This document shows, piece by piece, positions 3,992 to 14,594 of a DNA stretch of 30,374 bases. A program made the position numbers and the translations under genes. The notes under the pieces are model-generated. The model worked only from the letters and a program-made list of their open reading frames with translations. It did not search any database and had not been told where the DNA came from. This stretch comes from Candidatus Xenobia bacterium. GTDB taxonomy: Bacteria > Vulcanimicrobiota > Xenobia > Xenobiales > QWHO01. Within the stretch, counting starts at the first letter, position 1; the number at the start of each line of letters is the position of its first letter. The stretch spans positions 1 through 30,374 of the forward strand of contig BTUM01000089.1 of assembly GCA_045863235.1 (NCBI GenBank), read 5' to 3'.

Positions 3992-4477
3992 TCAATAATC
4001 GTCCTTGCCGGTCAGCTCCATCTCGAAGCTGTCCGCCTCCTGGGCGACCCCTTCGGCAAAGGCCGAGAAGGTCTCCAGGTCGGCGTCGGCCGGAATGCGG
4101 GAAACGTAGAGCACCAGCTGCTTGGTGCCCTCGGACTGAGGCAGGATGGCCCAGCTGCCCAGTTTGGTTTGCAGGCTGTCGTCGAGCAAGGCGCGAGCTA
4201 CCTCGGCAGGGATCTCCCCTTCGTAGATCCCGGCCGCCGACCAGATCTCACGCATCTCCAATTTGCCCACGGTGAAGGTCTTGGAGCGCACGACCAGCAG
4301 CTGGGTGCGTTCACCCTCGGTCTGCATGACCAGCTGGTAATCCCCATCCTCGTCGGTCTTGTAGGACCATTCCAGCTTCTTGAGGGGTTCCTCGACCCGC
4401 GGGTCAGGCGGAAGACCCTGAGCCAACAACGAGCTGGCCAGGGCCAGGACGAGCAGGGACCGGAGGGTCAGAGCCAT
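3992..4477 (-). CDS. Exported hypothetical protein, probable YbjN/CesT (type III chaperone-like) fold
   Basis: Signal peptide MALTLRSLLVLALASSLLA. The pattern YKTDEDGDY...RTQ...LL..S...KLGSW...AD.FE..LTG.D resembles YbjN-like proteins. Overlaps the end of the upstream ATPase gene by 10 nt, suggesting an operon. Confidence 0.55.
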   Translation of the reverse strand: MALTLRSLLVLALASSLLAQGLPPDPRVEEPLKKLEWSYKTDEDGDYQLVMQTEGERTQLLVVRSKTFTVGKLEMREIWSAAGIYEGEIPAEVARALLDDSLQTKLGSWAILPQSEGTKQLVLYVSRIPADADLETFSAFAEGVAQEADSFEMELTGKDDY

Positions 4478-6417
4478 CCCATCATGGTGTCGTCGACGCG
4501 GGCCTCTTCCAACTTGAGTTGGGAGACCTGAGGCTCGGCCGCCTCCACTGCAGGCTCCACGGCAGCCACTCGCGGAGCGCCCTCGCGAGCCACCAACCCC
4601 ACATCCTGGAGGCGAGCGATGGATTCACGGAAGGGATGCAGGTGCTCGGACGAGCCGGCCTCGAGCAGGGGCCCGAGCAGGTTGACCATCCCCTCGGCCA
4701 GGTAGTTGCGCACCAGGTCGTTGACCACCAGGATCTCGGTGGCAACCACGTTGCCCTTGCCATCGGCTCGAGGGAGCATACGCAGCGAAATGACCGCTCG
4801 CAGGGTGGAGGCGAGCAATATCTGGACGGTCTCACGAGCGGCACCCTCGAAGGAGTTCAGGATCCACTCGATGGCCCCCACGGTGGTAGGCGAGGCCAGG
4901 CTCGAGAGGACCAGGTGGCCACTCTCGGCGGCGACCAACGAGGCATACATCGTCTCCGCGTCGCGGAGCTCGCTGAGGGCCACCACGTCCGCCTGCTGGC
5001 GCAGGGCGTGGTTGAGGGCCTCGGTGAAGCTGTTGGCGTCGGTGCCAACCTCGCGCTGGCTGACCACGCTCTTCTTGTCCTGGTGGTAGTACTCGATGGG
5101 ATCCTCGATGGTAAAGATCTGGATCCGGCGGGTGGCATTGATGGCATCGACCAGCGAGGCCAGGGTGGTGGTTTTGCCGCTCTGGGGAGGGCCAGCCACC
5201 AGGATGAGGCCGTCTCGGTGTCCGGCCAGTTGCTCGAGCAGCACCGGCAGGCCCAGATCGGCCAGGGCGGGCACGCGGGCCGCCAGCGGCTTGAAGACGC
5301 CGCAAACGCTGCCACGCTGCAGGTAGGCGTCCAAGCGGAAGCGCACCCCCAGCGCACTGCAGGCCACGGTCACGTCCTTGCGATCAAGCAAGAGCTTGCG
5401 ATGCTCGGCCGGCATGGCATTTAAGATCAGCGAGCGGCAATCTTCGGGCCGCAGAATGTGATCTCCGATGGGCACCCACTGGCCGTGCAGACGGGCAACC
5501 GAAGGCGAGCCGGTCTTCAACAAGAGCTCGCTGGCCTCGTGCTTGAGCACGACGTAAAGCAGGTCGTCGAGCGAAAAATCAAGATCGGGGGGAGGGGCCA
5601 CCTTGTCGGCGCCGTCAACCGAAGTCGGGGCCGCCGGCGCCGCCGCAGCCGGCTCACTGGCTTTGATCTGGGCGAGCAGGCTGGCCATGGCGGCGAGCTT
5701 GCTGTCCAGCTCATCGAGCCTCTCGCGCTCGATCTTCTTGAGCTTGGCCTCCAGGCCATCGAAGCGCTCGACCTCGAGCTCCTTGACGCGGCTCTCGAGC
5801 TTCTCGAGCAGATCCAGGTTCTTCAGGCGCGACTCGAGCTCACCGATTCGCTCGAGAACTTCCGCCGAGGGGGCTGCCGCGGCCCCGTTGCTGCCTCGCG
5901 ACTCGAGCTGAATCAAACGGGGCTCGAGCTGGGCCAGTCGATCCTCGAGCTCGAAGGCAGGATTTCGATCAACCCGCTCTTCCAGCTCAGCCAGCCGGAC
6001 CAGGACGTTGGGGTCGGTAGCCGAGGGACCGGACTCGCCGCTGCCGGCGGGGCGTGCCTCCACCTCAGCCAGGCGCTCCTCGAGCTTCTTGACCTGGACG
6101 AGGGGGTCTTCCTCCTCGGGAACATCCTCCAGGTCGGCCTCGATCGTGGCGACCTGTTTCTTGAGCGTCTTGATCTCTTTCTTGAGCTCGAGCAGCTCTT
6201 CCGGGGCGGCTCCTCCTCCGCCACCGCCGCCACCGCCTTCGCGGAGGGCCTGGACCACCATCCACAGGTCATTGACCTGCTCGGAGGTAACCGCGCGGAT
6301 CTCGGATTTCAGGGCCGCTACCAGCCGCTCGGGAATGCCCTGCAGCGTCTCCAGCCGACTTTCCCTTTCAGGAGGCATGCGAAGCCTGACCTTTCCTTCT
6401 GACCTGAGGGCCAGCAT
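4468..6417 (-). CDS. PilT/PilU-family type IV pilus ATPase-like protein with a ~270 aa N-terminal coiled-coil extension
   Basis: Walker A GPPQSGKTT, Asp box TIEDPIEY, SQREVG, Walker B region DVVALSELRD, AESGHLV, RFR motif. The N-terminus is heptad-rich (RLAELEERV, LEKLESRVKELE). Confidence 0.85.
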   Translation of the reverse strand: MLALRSEGKVRLRMPPERESRLETLQGIPERLVAALKSEIRAVTSEQVNDLWMVVQALREGGGGGGGGGAAPEELLELKKEIKTLKKQVATIEADLEDVPEEEDPLVQVKKLEERLAEVEARPAGSGESGPSATDPNVLVRLAELEERVDRNPAFELEDRLAQLEPRLIQLESRGSNGAAAAPSAEVLERIGELESRLKNLDLLEKLESRVKELEVERFDGLEAKLKKIERERLDELDSKLAAMASLLAQIKASEPAAAAPAAPTSVDGADKVAPPPDLDFSLDDLLYVVLKHEASELLLKTGSPSVARLHGQWVPIGDHILRPEDCRSLILNAMPAEHRKLLLDRKDVTVACSALGVRFRLDAYLQRGSVCGVFKPLAARVPALADLGLPVLLEQLAGHRDGLILVAGPPQSGKTTTLASLVDAINATRRIQIFTIEDPIEYYHQDKKSVVSQREVGTDANSFTEALNHALRQQADVVALSELRDAETMYASLVAAESGHLVLSSLASPTTVGAIEWILNSFEGAARETVQILLASTLRAVISLRMLPRADGKGNVVATEILVVNDLVRNYLAEGMVNLLGPLLEAGSSEHLHPFRESIARLQDVGLVAREGAPRVAAVEPAVEAAEPQVSQLKLEEARVDDTMMGWL

Positions 6418-11158: not shown

Positions 11159-14026
11159 CTAGGCAAGCAACCCCGCTCCCCTCAGCTTGAGTCGCCAGTT
11201 GGCCGAGCGCAGGCAGTCGCGCAGGGGCTCGTCCACCCGCCAGAACCGGTCGGCCCCGGAAAGCACCTGCTGGAGCACATCGGCCGTCCAGCACGGATCT
11301 CCCAGGCAAGAAAGCTCCTCCACCGCCAGGGCTGCGCTCTCCGAGCGCAGCAGCAGAACCACCCGGCGCCTTCTGGCCTGGCGCAGGACGGCCAGAGCCA
11401 GCTCGCCGCTCAGAGTTGCATCCACCACCAGCGCGTCGGCCTCCAGGTCCTCGGCGGTGGGCTCGAGGTGTTCGGCGGGGGCGGTGAGGTAGTTCGCGGT
11501 GGTATCGGGAGCACGCTCGGCACAGAGCACAATGACGCCCTCGAGACGTTCCAGGAAGTCTGCCGTGAGGCGTGAGCGCAGCCGGAAGTCGGGACAGGCG
11601 ACCAGGGTCAGGCCGGCACCGGTGAGATCTCCCGGGGCGCTCAGGCGGGGGGAAAGCTCGCCCTCCAGGGTCAGAACCATCATCCCCGGACGGTAGGTCA
11701 GGCCGCAGCCGAACTCCCTCCCGTCGTGAACCAGCTCGATGCGGCCCCGGGAGGGTTGGTCGAGCTCTGGCTTCAGGCCGGCCAGCGTCAGCAGGCGACA
11801 CAGGATGGGCGCCCGCACGTGAGCGGGGGGGCTCATCACGACCTGCAGCTTGCCGCCGATCCGGTATTCCACCGTATCGGTCAGTCGGATGGAGGTGGCC
11901 CCGTCGTTGATTGCCCTCGATACGATGAGGTTGACCACCCGCACGATAGGCGCCTCGTCCACCAGGTCCTTGAGCTTGTCCAGGGCGACCTCCTCGTCCA
12001 TCGGGCCGAAGTCCTGGGCCGAGATGTCTTTGACGGTCTGCTCCACCTCCAGCGGCTGGGCGAAGTGGGAGGTCGCCAGTTCGACCTTCTCGCTCTGGTC
12101 TACCAGCACGAAGGCCGTGAAGGCGGTGAGCAACTTGAAGCGCACGGCCATGTCCACGATCTCGCGAGCCGAGCCGTGGCCCAGGCGGAGGCGATCCTCC
12201 AGGGCCCGCACCCGCTCGCGAGCCCACAACAGAGGCAGCCCCGATCCTCCCAGCGGGGTGGGTTGCAGCAGGACGCGATACTCTTCGCCGGAATGAGCCC
12301 AGCGACCCAGCACCTCGATCGGGCCCTGCCCCATGCAGCGACCGGACAGCAGCGTGGGCCGGGCCGCGAACAGGTCCCCCGGGCGGCCGGGGGCGAGGCT
12401 CTCAGGCAGGTAGTTGAGTCCCCGGTCGACCAGACGCAGGTCGGTCACGACGGCTCGCGACGTCTCCTGCTCCAGGCGACCCAGCGCCCTCGGAAGCTCG
12501 TGGCCGTCGGCCAGCAGCTCGCAGGTGGCCCGGGAGATCTGGGCCAGCTCGCGCAGGAAGGCGTCGTTGACGGACGAGCCAAGCCCCAGTGTGAAGATGC
12601 GGCAGGGAAGCTCCTGGCGGCGAAGCCAGGCGTAGATCTGGGGCTCGTTGCCCACCATCCCGTCGGTGAGCAGCACCGCGCAAAGCAGCCGGCCTGGCTC
12701 CGGTTTGTATTGACGGAGCAGCCGCTCCAGTGCGGACAGGATCTCGGTTCCCCCGTCCGAGCGCACCGAGTCGAGCCAGCGAAAGGCGGCCTCGCGCTGA
12801 TCCATCCCCCAGAAACGGTCGCCGCCGAAGGTCTCGAGCCGGTCGTTGAAAGCCAGGATGGCAAACCGCTCATCGGCCTGAAGCTGGCCCAGAAATCCTC
12901 GCACGGCCTGGCAGGCGGTCTGCATGGTGTGGGTGCCCATGCTGCCCGAGCGGTCGACCAGGAACACCACGTCGCGCGGCAGTCCGTGGGCCGGGAAGTG
13001 AGCGGGCGGAGCCAGGCTGAGCAGAAAGTGCTCACCTTCGGTGTAGAGGGCTGCCACCGGCTCCTGGCTCTCGAGCTGAAAGCGCAGCACGAAGTCGCGG
13101 TTGAGCAGCTCTCTTTGGCGGGACAGCTGCACCACCGTGCAATCCTCGGTGAAGTGGGTGGCGATGCAGTGCTGGCTGGAGAGGATGCGATCGGCCCGGC
13201 CCTGCAGCACGACCTGAATCTCGAGGCGGGTGTCGGCATGCACCCCGGCCGGCAGGCGCGGGGCCACAGTCGCTCCGTTATCGGCATAGCGTGGCGCCAC
13301 CACCAGGGGGAAGCGAAACACCGTCTCGGTCTGGTGCTGTTCGAGCCACTCGGCGTAGTCCAGGCGCACCTCCACCCGCTCGCCGGCTTGCAGGTTGCCA
13401 ACCCGGGCGATCAGGACGTTGTCGCTGTTGAGCTCGAGCAGGGCGGCCCGATGACCGGCCTGCAGGCCCTGCACGAACTGTTGACGGGCCCGGGCGCGCT
13501 CTTTGACGTGGCCGGTCAGCACCCGCTCCCCGACGCGCATCTCGAAGCCGTGCACCGCCGCTCGGGCGGGCACGGGGAAGAGGTAGGAGACGTCCATCGC
13601 CTCGTCGGACGGGTTCTCGAACACCATCTCCAGCTCGACCCTGGCCAACGGCCCGGCGATGCGGGCCCGGGCGCTCAGAGCGCGCAGGGGCAGCTCCTGG
13701 CCCAGGACCTCGGCACCCAATCCCAGGCAACGGGCCACGAAGGATGGGGAAACCGGCACCGGGTCGATGTCCCAGCCAGTGATCAGGCGGATGTCGTCGA
13801 TGGCGATCAGGTTGCCAGGATCGACCATCCCCAGCCGCAGGCAGTTCCCCTCCAGGCCGAGCGGCACCAGTTGGTAGCGGTGCATCAAGTGCTCAGGAAG
13901 CTCGCGCATCAGCTCGGTGACGGGCGGTCCCTCGGGGCTCGAGGCGCTCACTCCCATCAGAAAGCCGGGCACTGGCACCGGGCCCGTCCAGGGCTCCTCG
14001 AAAAGTGGCAGGAACTCGTCTGACAT
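11159..14026 (-). CDS. Chimeric protein: GSPII_N (PilB N1) + VIT + vWA + PilB N2 + eroded ATPase domain (955 aa)
   Basis: LPEHLMHRYQLVPL...LRLGMVDPGNLIAIDDIRLITG (GSPII_N). LPLRALSARARIAGPLARVELEMVFENP...YLFPVP..AAV.GFEMRVG (VIT). DVVFLVDRSGSM...GGTEI...LLTDG (vWA MIDAS). EAPIVRVVNLIVSRAINDGA...YRIGG.L..VMSPP (PilB N2). Start ATG 14026 preceded by GAGGGGAG. Confidence 0.85.
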   Translation of the reverse strand: MSDEFLPLFEEPWTGPVPVPGFLMGVSASSPEGPPVTELMRELPEHLMHRYQLVPLGLEGNCLRLGMVDPGNLIAIDDIRLITGWDIDPVPVSPSFVARCLGLGAEVLGQELPLRALSARARIAGPLARVELEMVFENPSDEAMDVSYLFPVPARAAVHGFEMRVGERVLTGHVKERARARQQFVQGLQAGHRAALLELNSDNVLIARVGNLQAGERVEVRLDYAEWLEQHQTETVFRFPLVVAPRYADNGATVAPRLPAGVHADTRLEIQVVLQGRADRILSSQHCIATHFTEDCTVVQLSRQRELLNRDFVLRFQLESQEPVAALYTEGEHFLLSLAPPAHFPAHGLPRDVVFLVDRSGSMGTHTMQTACQAVRGFLGQLQADERFAILAFNDRLETFGGDRFWGMDQREAAFRWLDSVRSDGGTEILSALERLLRQYKPEPGRLLCAVLLTDGMVGNEPQIYAWLRRQELPCRIFTLGLGSSVNDAFLRELAQISRATCELLADGHELPRALGRLEQETSRAVVTDLRLVDRGLNYLPESLAPGRPGDLFAARPTLLSGRCMGQGPIEVLGRWAHSGEEYRVLLQPTPLGGSGLPLLWARERVRALEDRLRLGHGSAREIVDMAVRFKLLTAFTAFVLVDQSEKVELATSHFAQPLEVEQTVKDISAQDFGPMDEEVALDKLKDLVDEAPIVRVVNLIVSRAINDGATSIRLTDTVEYRIGGKLQVVMSPPAHVRAPILCRLLTLAGLKPELDQPSRGRIELVHDGREFGCGLTYRPGMMVLTLEGELSPRLSAPGDLTGAGLTLVACPDFRLRSRLTADFLERLEGVIVLCAERAPDTTANYLTAPAEHLEPTAEDLEADALVVDATLSGELALAVLRQARRRRVVLLLRSESAALAVEELSCLGDPCWTADVLQQVLSGADRFWRVDEPLRDCLRSANWRLKLRGAGLLA

Positions 14027-14195: not shown

Positions 14196-14594
14196 TCAAG
14201 CCGAGCGGTAGCGCTGCTCGCGCCAGCGCTTGAAATCTTGCAGGTCAAGCGCGATGGCGCGGCAGACGTGGCCGAACACGTCCTCGAGGCTGTCTCTCCC
14301 GCGCAGGAGGTCTCCGAGGTGGGTGGAGGCAGTGGTATAGTTCAGGGCGCTCAGAGCCAGGGTGACCGAGCCGTAGGCCGGCCCGCGGCACTCGCCGGTA
14401 TAGTAGGCCCAGACGAGGGCGGGGAGGGAGGTGACGTCCTCGGCCAGGGGCTCGAGCCGGCCGCCTGGCTCGACCGTGCGCTCGAGCAGCGTGCGCGCCT
14501 GGTGCAGCTGGCGCAACAGGGCATCGCGGTCTTTCAGCAGGCGCGGGGCCAGCTTCACTGCGGTCTTCCAGGTGTGGCTCTTGGGTTCCGGCAT
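14196..14594 (-). CDS. YkvA/DUF1232-like protein (degenerate)
   Basis: L.EDV..L..LVWAYYTGE.R.....SV.L.LSALNY......D....D.LED....V...I..DL.DF..W matches the YkvA layout. RBS GGGAGG present. Confidence 0.55.
   Translation of the reverse strand: MPEPKSHTWKTAVKLAPRLLKDRDALLRQLHQARTLLERTVEPGGRLEPLAEDVTSLPALVWAYYTGECRGPAYGSVTLALSALNYTTASTHLGDLLRGRDSLEDVFGHVCRAIALDLQDFKRWREQRYRSA

Follow-up and report, generated by a model that had tools for sequence, protein, structure and literature searches.

The locus studied here is a minus-strand open reading frame (ORF) at 11159..14026 of a 30,374-nucleotide stretch of DNA from a Candidatus Xenobia bacterium (contig BTUM01000089.1 of assembly GCA_045863235.1; the whole stretch is called the window). 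It encodes a protein of 955 aa, P0001, in which the C-subdomain of the PilB N1 domain (N1C), a VIT-vWA core, the PilB linker, the PilB N2 domain and a dead ATPase remnant follow one another; all features of P0001 given below lie on the minus strand. The original prediction, made from the letters alone, had described one uninterrupted ORF with a VIT-vWA module placed at the N1/N2 junction of a catalytically dead PilB/GspE. The frame indeed runs without a stop from the ATG at 14026 to the stop at 11159, and Pfam matches, PDB matches and hhalign bear out both the architecture and the insertion site. An alternative TTG start at 14248 was offered by the ORF lister. We prefer 14026, because a purine-rich GAGG precedes it and three orthologues of the genus likewise begin with MSDE or MSDD. 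Hydropathy showed no signal peptide or transmembrane segment in P0001, and it has no hydrophobic N-terminal segment.

The junctions are supported by contigs of public runs. Contigs of 4/4 runs bridged at least one junction and those of the public runs X1 and X9 bridged both; one of the four may be the window's own source, and no listed piece covers the entire stretch. Misassembly was ruled out by these contigs together with the occurrence of MshEN+VIT+vWA in 10 other clusters at 90% identity. A joint between 12051 and 13756 in runs X1 and X3 was considered as a deletion and rejected: 60 other letters lie between its sides, which fits an insert-free paralogue, either native pilB or a macroglobulin bait. 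The gene is partly covered by the RNA-labelled runs X3 and X9; these are contigs and hence no measure of transcription.

The VIT-vWA core resembles that of ITIH4 and PARP4

P0001 carries a complete ITIH/PARP4-type core (aa ~111-650; 12077..13696), identified by profile and fold matches. It comprises a VIT domain (aa 115-224; 13355..13684; PF08487, E 5.5e-29), a hybrid domain, a vWA domain (aa 352-499; 12530..12973; Pfam E 3.6e-13), a three-helix bundle and a closing strand. The MIDAS (metal ion-dependent adhesion site) of the vWA domain is intact, as had been predicted: DRSGS lies at 12955-12941 (D358-S362), with T427 and D455 at the remaining positions. The profile of the core matched PARP4 620-1184 best, and also ITIH4 26-602 and ITIH1 40-598. 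In an AlphaFold2 model (mean predicted local distance difference test score, pLDDT, 68) the core was confident and the linker and tail were low-confidence; the best fold match of the modelled core was ITIH1 (6fpy, E 3e-35). Profile positions 111-660 of P0001 align with ITIH4 26-602 and the PilB linker comes immediately after. The segment directly C-terminal of the core, aa 653-691, is modelled as flexible (pLDDT under 50).

The human heavy chains ITIH4 and ITIH1 (PDB 9c4f and 6fpy) share with P0001 the VIT-hybrid-vWA-helix core, the intact MIDAS and a variable segment behind it. Unlike them, P0001 is bacterial and has no signal peptide. As ITIH4 is secreted and P0001 lacks a hydrophobic N-terminal segment, the latter is not an ITIH4 orthologue; at most it 'works like' ITIH4. 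According to PMC7793589, a protease cuts ITIH4 within 633-713 and a MIDAS-dependent complex then retains the protease. The ITIH4 segment is a proline-rich general substrate, whereas that of P0001 copies one particular protein of the cell itself, and any trapping by P0001 is putative. PARP4 and the VWA5A/Vwa1-type VIT-vWFA proteins are intracellular like P0001, and PARP4 is the best sequence match of the core; unlike PARP4, P0001 has no PARP domain. Intracellular VIT-vWFA proteins, bacterial members included, are treated in PMC10539598 (clades B1/B2/D), whose available part mentions no PilB fusion among them. Against TIGR03788, the model of marine sortase-target VIT-vWA proteins, P0001 scored 322 bits (cut-off 552); its tail is PilB-derived and has no sorting signal.

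The PilB-derived parts are old and preserved at the protein level

Upstream of the core lies N1C (MshEN_C; aa 34-101; 13724..13927; Pfam MshEN E 1e-11). The match spans profile positions 12-80, that is, only the alpha/beta C-subdomain. The four-helix MshEN_N with its tandem motif was not found in P0001, which gave no alignment to PilB 1-60, and it is also missing in the 16 closest relatives. Downstream of the core follow the linker core (aa 661-674; 12005..12046; pLDDT under 50), the N2 domain (aa 690-790; 11657..11959) and the degenerate ATPase remnant (aa 791-955; 11162..11656). Residues 655-790 match the linker and N2 of PilB/GspE in PDB (E 6e-9 to 2e-7) and also TIGR02538, for which the whole protein scored 58 bits against a cut-off of 676. 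A Pro-Pro pair in N2, aa 733-734, corresponds by alignment to the Aqs1-binding patch of Pseudomonas PilB. The native PilB of this genome (C136:7935-9665, inside a pilB-pilT-pilC run) is 94% identical to an Eremiobacterota-named protein, which suggests an Eremiobacterota host; N1C of P0001 is 52% and its linker-N2 part ~51% identical to this native PilB. P0001 thus shares with the PilB/GspE ATPases of TIGR02538 the native order of N1C, linker and N2. It differs from them in lacking Walker A and any significant ATPase match, in its 550-aa insert and in the loss of MshEN_N.

The ATPase part is dead, as predicted. GxxxxGK[ST] occurs nowhere in P0001, the Walker A position (11614-11573) being without GK[ST], and the Walker A, Walker B glutamate, His box and zinc motif that a PilB/GspE ATPase requires were not found in it. 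The individual motif assignments of the prediction fared unequally: its pseudo-Walker A, GLTLVACPDFRLRS, aligns with PilB Walker A by colinearity when the alignment is anchored on N2, while its Walker B and His box look credible beside relatives that have decayed less but have no statistical support. The C-terminal part as a whole is recognisable as PilB by hhalign (N2 plus tail against native PilB, probability 99.6%), but its last 165 aa taken alone are not (0.1%, E 0.46).

All regions of P0001 are under purifying selection (ratio of non-synonymous to synonymous substitution, dN/dS, 0.17-0.39). Pooled over the 4 orthologues of the genus, the values were 0.17-0.24 for the core, 0.38 for N1C, 0.23 for the linker, 0.26 for N2 and 0.22 for the tail. 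Between N2 and the genome's own pilB, synonymous sites were 65% different and non-synonymous sites 14%. The PilB copy in P0001 is old and preserved at the protein level. A recent duplication or gene conversion from pilB was unsupported for N1C and N2 (proportion of synonymous differences, pS, 0.60-0.65); for the 16-codon linker core (pS 0.28) the number of sites, 11, is too small for a verdict.

VIT-vWA/PilB fusions form a family with graded decay of the ATPase

Eighteen protein clusters bear PilB pieces on a VIT-vWA core, and the MIDAS (DxSxS, T, D) is intact in 18/18 fusion proteins. A search with the linker as query found 6 further fusions among 85 hits, and P0026 was recognised as one more. 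The fusion is present in 4/5 genomes of the genus and in 4/4 of g26, a genus of a different family. At the 1e-10 threshold 333/401 genomes of the window's phylum gave no match, which does not amount to absence as no genome had more than two candidates scored. Decay of the PilB parts is graded, the ATPase part ranging from near intact to absent: fusions of family f13 have a near-complete ATPase domain with both MshEN subdomains and adjoin pilB paralogues; those of g26 retain a Walker A-like motif besides both MshEN subdomains, with Walker B and the His box altered; and some others stop after N2. In Planctomycetota, VIT-vWA proteins of Aporhodopirellula rubra and 3 other genomes carry their own PilB N1, linker and N2 behind the core. 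Cultured carriers are Aporhodopirellula rubra CECT 8075 (VIT-vWA form) and Blastopirellula marina (macroglobulin form, described below).

A second pilus protein is represented in VIT-vWA tails. The tails of 6 other VIT-vWA proteins (L009, L012, L016, L041, L042 and P0014) bear the N-terminal motif of PilN, and 2 of the 6 also include the hydrophobic segment that follows it. Among the 36,694 ORFs of the window's genome this motif matches native PilN only. The N-terminal peptide of PilN binds PilM.

Several further features of these loci were observed. Two to three pilB-like genes with degenerate motifs stand in runs beside the fusion at L032, L033, L035 and L036 (genomes G031, G016 and G027), and in L034 two copies of the linker core stand in tandem. 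The VIT-vWA tail of P0036 carries the C-terminal domain of FliG (FliG_C), a part of another motor. L041 and L042 (G022 and G031) have three VIT-vWA genes in tandem whose add-ons differ; the N-terminal TPR region of one of these array genes is 37% identical to a TPR protein of the window's genome (C145:8280) encoded directly after a pilMNOPQ-like cluster.

The same PilB piece occurs in macroglobulin-like, third-family and vault-like scaffolds

The window's genome has 2 leaderless macroglobulin-like genes, on contigs C7 and C75. The C7 gene has a low-complexity segment at the site where the C75 gene holds PilB N1 and the first half of the linker. We collected 120 such proteins with the C-terminal half as query, so that there was no selection for the linker; by source names they come from Myxococcota, Planctomycetota, Acidobacteria and Eremiobacterota. 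The thioester motif CCEQ was present in at least 118/120 and an N-terminal hydrophobic segment in none of the 120. Their profile, and a fold model built for the insert-free member P0244, match human, E. coli and Salmonella A2M, ECAM and TEP, and their variable segment aligns with the human A2M bait. Macroglobulins are sprung by cleavage of the bait. Judged by sequence and modelled fold, these sister proteins would qualify as alpha-2-macroglobulins by fold, CxEQ motif and bait position, features that they share with human A2M, E. coli ECAM/YfhM and Salmonella A2M. Unlike those, they are leaderless (120/120), and in the fusions the bait is a host-type PilB N1 with half a linker.

That bait was found in 18/120, of which 3 are of Eremiobacterota type and 15 of planctomycete type, and N2 lay inside none of the 18. 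The remaining 102 baits consist on average to 60% of P/A/G/S/M, and PilB is the only Pfam family seen within the bait among the 120 proteins.

Around the C75 gene (L051:3931-7959, i.e. G000:C75:23930-27958, with an overlapping frame to 29109), the end of the gene looks by eye like an N2 remnant, and behind it comes a second dead PilB frame that has MshEN, N2 and the zinc motif. Upstream, on the opposite strand, stands a type IV restriction-like gene; a lone defence neighbour is weak evidence. The baits of P0220 and P0238 contain a short folded-looking segment that we take, by eye, to be ribbon-helix-helix-like and that is possibly another self-bait. Many Polyangiaceae-type baits end in a GPYR motif.

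A third scaffold family, without Pfam family in its scaffold, has 2,724 representatives at E 0.001. Its variable loop is mostly low-complexity (95 of 150 representatives parsed). In 4 sequences (L056, L203 = L205, P0251 and P0252) the loop is PilB N1 plus linker, the PilB member L056 being encoded at L056:3536-5032 (G054). In P0317 and P0383 the same site holds a whole ubiquitin ending LRLRG[GC]. An LRLRGG-type ubiquitin end is the motif cut by deubiquitinases, and the ubiquitin inserts have the same layout as the PilB inserts, a folded domain followed by an end peptide. The loop of this family (L056, L203, P0251-P0400) can also contain a protein kinase.

Lastly, vault-shoulder-like proteins with N-terminal PilB N1C and linker were found in 6 Pirellulaceae-family genomes (L221, L222, L223, L225, L227 and L228). 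Their label has as its sole basis the ESM Atlas feature scores of 0.95-0.97 to Band 7/MVP-shoulder clusters; Pfam and PDB sequence searches gave no hit. The VIT-vWA module is also that of PARP4, which is associated with vaults, and for this reason the VIT-vWA and vault-like scaffolds may be linked. Among the 151 genomes of Aporhodopirellula's family, the linker was present in 149 and a second copy of it in 10. All 10 second copies are fusions (3 VIT-vWA, 1 macroglobulin and 6 vault-like). In a phylum-wide planctomycete sample of 201 genomes the fusion was seen in the seed genome only.

The first half of the linker is common to all scaffolds

Only one PilB piece is common to all scaffolds, namely the N1-N2 linker in its first half. 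The linker core was present in 24/24 Eremiobacterota-type VIT fusions (18 found without a linker query and 6 with it) and in 18/18 PilB-type macroglobulin baits (a pattern identified 14 of them and inspection by eye the other 4), and the piece terminates at the equivalent place in both phyla. The flanking domains are not always kept: N1 is absent from the VIT fusions P0064 and P0026, N2 does not adjoin the linker in macroglobulin, third-family and vault-like inserts, and L028, the weakest case with a 14-residue match of 38 bits, has neither. In native PilB of these phyla, 10/14 positions of the linker core are conserved in 61-70 of 71 sequences. Among viral contigs there were 0 matches to the planctomycete linker pattern and 2 to the Eremiobacterota pattern, neither of them found in a linker-bearing frame.

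All 46 inserts tested scored higher against one donor type, which for known hosts was the PilB of their own phylum, and N1 stands before the core in Eremiobacterota and after it in planctomycetes. The different donors and domain orders show that VIT-vWA proteins captured PilB at least twice independently, and the trees suggest more than two captures. Parsimony gave 6 changes on a 45-row core tree (FastTree was run on 85 rows). A single origin of the 17 Eremiobacterota-type rows as one clade was rejected by the approximately unbiased (AU) test (p 2.6e-6). All 21 rows as one clade were not rejected (p 0.216), although the constrained tree was 1753 log units worse. The AU groups were named after a tree had been seen, and the trees cannot tell gains from losses; the case for several origins therefore rests on donor type and domain order.

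A possible bait-and-trap decoy

The architecture is real, conserved and apparently undescribed, and is part of a wider convergent pattern. We propose, at what we judge an even chance, that P0001 protects the type IV pilus motor as a bait-and-trap decoy in the cytoplasm, directed at a protease or another enzyme whose target on the motor is the linker. A phage, predator or competitor would bring a foreign enzyme, most likely a protease, into the cytoplasm, where it would recognise PilB N1/N2 and cut within the first half of the linker. The copy in P0001 would be attacked in place of PilB, and the MIDAS would retain the attacker or the event would be signalled; the dead ATPase remnant would be retained as part of the PilB look-alike. 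We favour this reading because a folded domain of the host with a short, exposed peptide behind it resembles the layout of a specific protease substrate, and because the linker copy occupies the ITIH4 bait position in P0001 and the A2M bait position in the macroglobulins.

Several points weigh against it. No PilB-cleaving protease was found in the literature searched, and no paired effector or signalling partner came to light. PADLOC gave no match for 8 scaffold proteins, and none of the ORFs scanned is a defence neighbour of the window gene. Bait loops are the most insertion-tolerant sites, and both the vault-like proteins and the N-terminus of P0001 carry a PilB piece outside any known bait position. 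The conservation of the native linker implies a native binding role, and the linker could be kept in the fusions for that reason. ITIH4-like trapping in a bacterial VIT-vWA protein would be an analogy only: the anatomy, its conservation and its repeated capture are observed, and the attacker, the cleavage and the trapping complex are what we infer.

The binding role of the linker is the basis of another explanation, in which the PilB pieces, and the PilN pieces of paralogues, are docking tags or adaptors that anchor the scaffolds at the pilus base by way of PilM or the PilB hexamer, the MIDAS or thioester then acting on passing material or regulating the motor. For N1 a contact with the PilM stator is assumed, and in Pseudomonas the linker binds the N2 patch and holds the hexamer together (PMC11656802 and PMC13436744). 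The 6 PilN-bearing tails and the f13 fusions, with their near-complete ATPase domain beside pilB paralogues, also fit docking. However, P0064, P0026 and L028 have no N1, and none of the 18 macroglobulin baits has N2. Tagging would not require the bait loop to be replaced, yet replaced it is in both phyla, and the distribution is patchy (10/151 Pirellulaceae-family genomes), with four scaffolds substituting for one another. A prediction in which the linker (aa 650-692) was paired with 2 copies of native PilB N2-CTD scored 0.00 and speaks for neither side. We consider docking unlikely. The original prediction had offered an adaptor or a decoy; the direction of the evidence favours the decoy, the adaptor being weaker because N1 is absent from some VIT fusions and N2 from the macroglobulin baits, while the linker half is always present.

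A further explanation, which we rate slightly below docking, is a sponge: the N2 patch would absorb a hexamer-breaking phage peptide, an inhibitor of PilB that is non-enzymatic like Aqs1 or Tip. Aqs1 attaches to the N2 patch around P228/P229, N2 is also where Tip binds (PMC11656802), and the corresponding Met-x-Pro-Pro is present in 22/24 Eremiobacterota-type VIT fusions. Against this, the macroglobulin, third-family and vault-like fusions have no N2 beside the linker, the intact MIDAS (18/18) or thioester would be superfluous, and Aqs proteins are reportedly not widespread outside Pseudomonas.

The insertions might also be merely tolerated, pilB pieces landing in flexible loops or VIT-vWA in a spare pilB, so that VIT-vWA would simply go on with its own function and leave the PilB parts to decay. 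pilB is often duplicated and these genomes have several degenerate paralogues, the ATPase part does decay in a gradient, and bait loops vary freely. We find this improbable, since the PilB-derived parts have dN/dS 0.22-0.38 and are conserved at the protein level despite a synonymous difference of ~60% from native pilB, a single gene has been captured repeatedly to the same end point in 4 scaffolds and 2 phyla, and no Pfam family but PilB was seen inside the bait among 120. Regulation of a VIT-vWA protein by cyclic di-GMP (c-di-GMP) with MshEN as sensor is least probable by far: MshEN domains act as c-di-GMP receptors and are found joined to many outputs, and both MshEN subdomains occur in the f13 fusions and most macroglobulin baits, but the binding site lies in MshEN_N (PMC5013675), whose absence from P0001 excludes sensing by it and which the 16 closest relatives lack too, and the copies of linker, N2 and PilN would be left unexplained.

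The decoy reading could extend beyond P0001. With somewhat less than even confidence, we suggest a cytoplasmic layer of 'integrated bait' traps, in which ITIH-like VIT-vWA proteins, leaderless macroglobulins, the third family and the vault-like proteins are baited with self pieces, and the linker half, captured repeatedly in two phyla, would mark the point at which a widespread and so far undiscovered protease or effector disables PilB. Plant NLR-ID proteins are integrated decoys. Both they and the decoys of ternary conflict systems have, like P0001, a dead copy of a host target on a putative immune scaffold; unlike them, P0001 has no NLR, MoxR or effector partner that we found. Inactive-enzyme decoys in prokaryotic ternary conflict systems are proposed in PMC7159879, whose main text does not mention PilB, MshE, GspE or macroglobulin, and PMC8195603 contains none of the terms of this architecture. 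The prediction that the architecture is undescribed held in our search, in which no paper on VIT+vWA+PilB or MshEN+vWA was found (most subscription papers lay outside it).

Bacterial VIT-vWA proteins are common, and we found no mechanism assigned to them in the literature. If they are ITIH4-like traps with bait tails, the tails would list the targets of their enemies lineage by lineage, and the trapping practised by plasma inhibitors of animals would have a counterpart in the bacterial cytoplasm. The pattern points to the 14-residue PilB linker site as the spot that some unknown weapon probably hits, and through the thioester members the attacker could be fished out covalently.

Genomic neighbourhood of the fusion gene

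The P0001 gene is flanked by a short ORF with a two-component cluster and by a convergent major facilitator superfamily transporter gene, and this order recurs in the genus. An atypical PilT gene (window 4468-6417, minus strand) encodes an intact Walker A, an altered His box and a coiled N-terminal extension of 280 aa. A link between this PilT and the fusion, raised with the original prediction, was not borne out beyond synteny within the genus: PilT lies nearby in L039, the one relative of the genus for which enough sequence was retrieved, and the remaining fusion loci (2-17 kb each) gave no reported PilT match. MoxR-vWA ternary conflict systems have an adjacent MoxR AAA+ gene, whereas a MoxR-like motif was seen neither in the window nor in 19 VIT-fusion loci (2-17 kb, several short). 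Other contigs yielded 4 MoxR-like ORFs. PilB N1-N2 or N1C alone was also observed joined to unrelated C-terminal regions, at L057:4613-6298 (G035) and L073:1279-2484 (G110).

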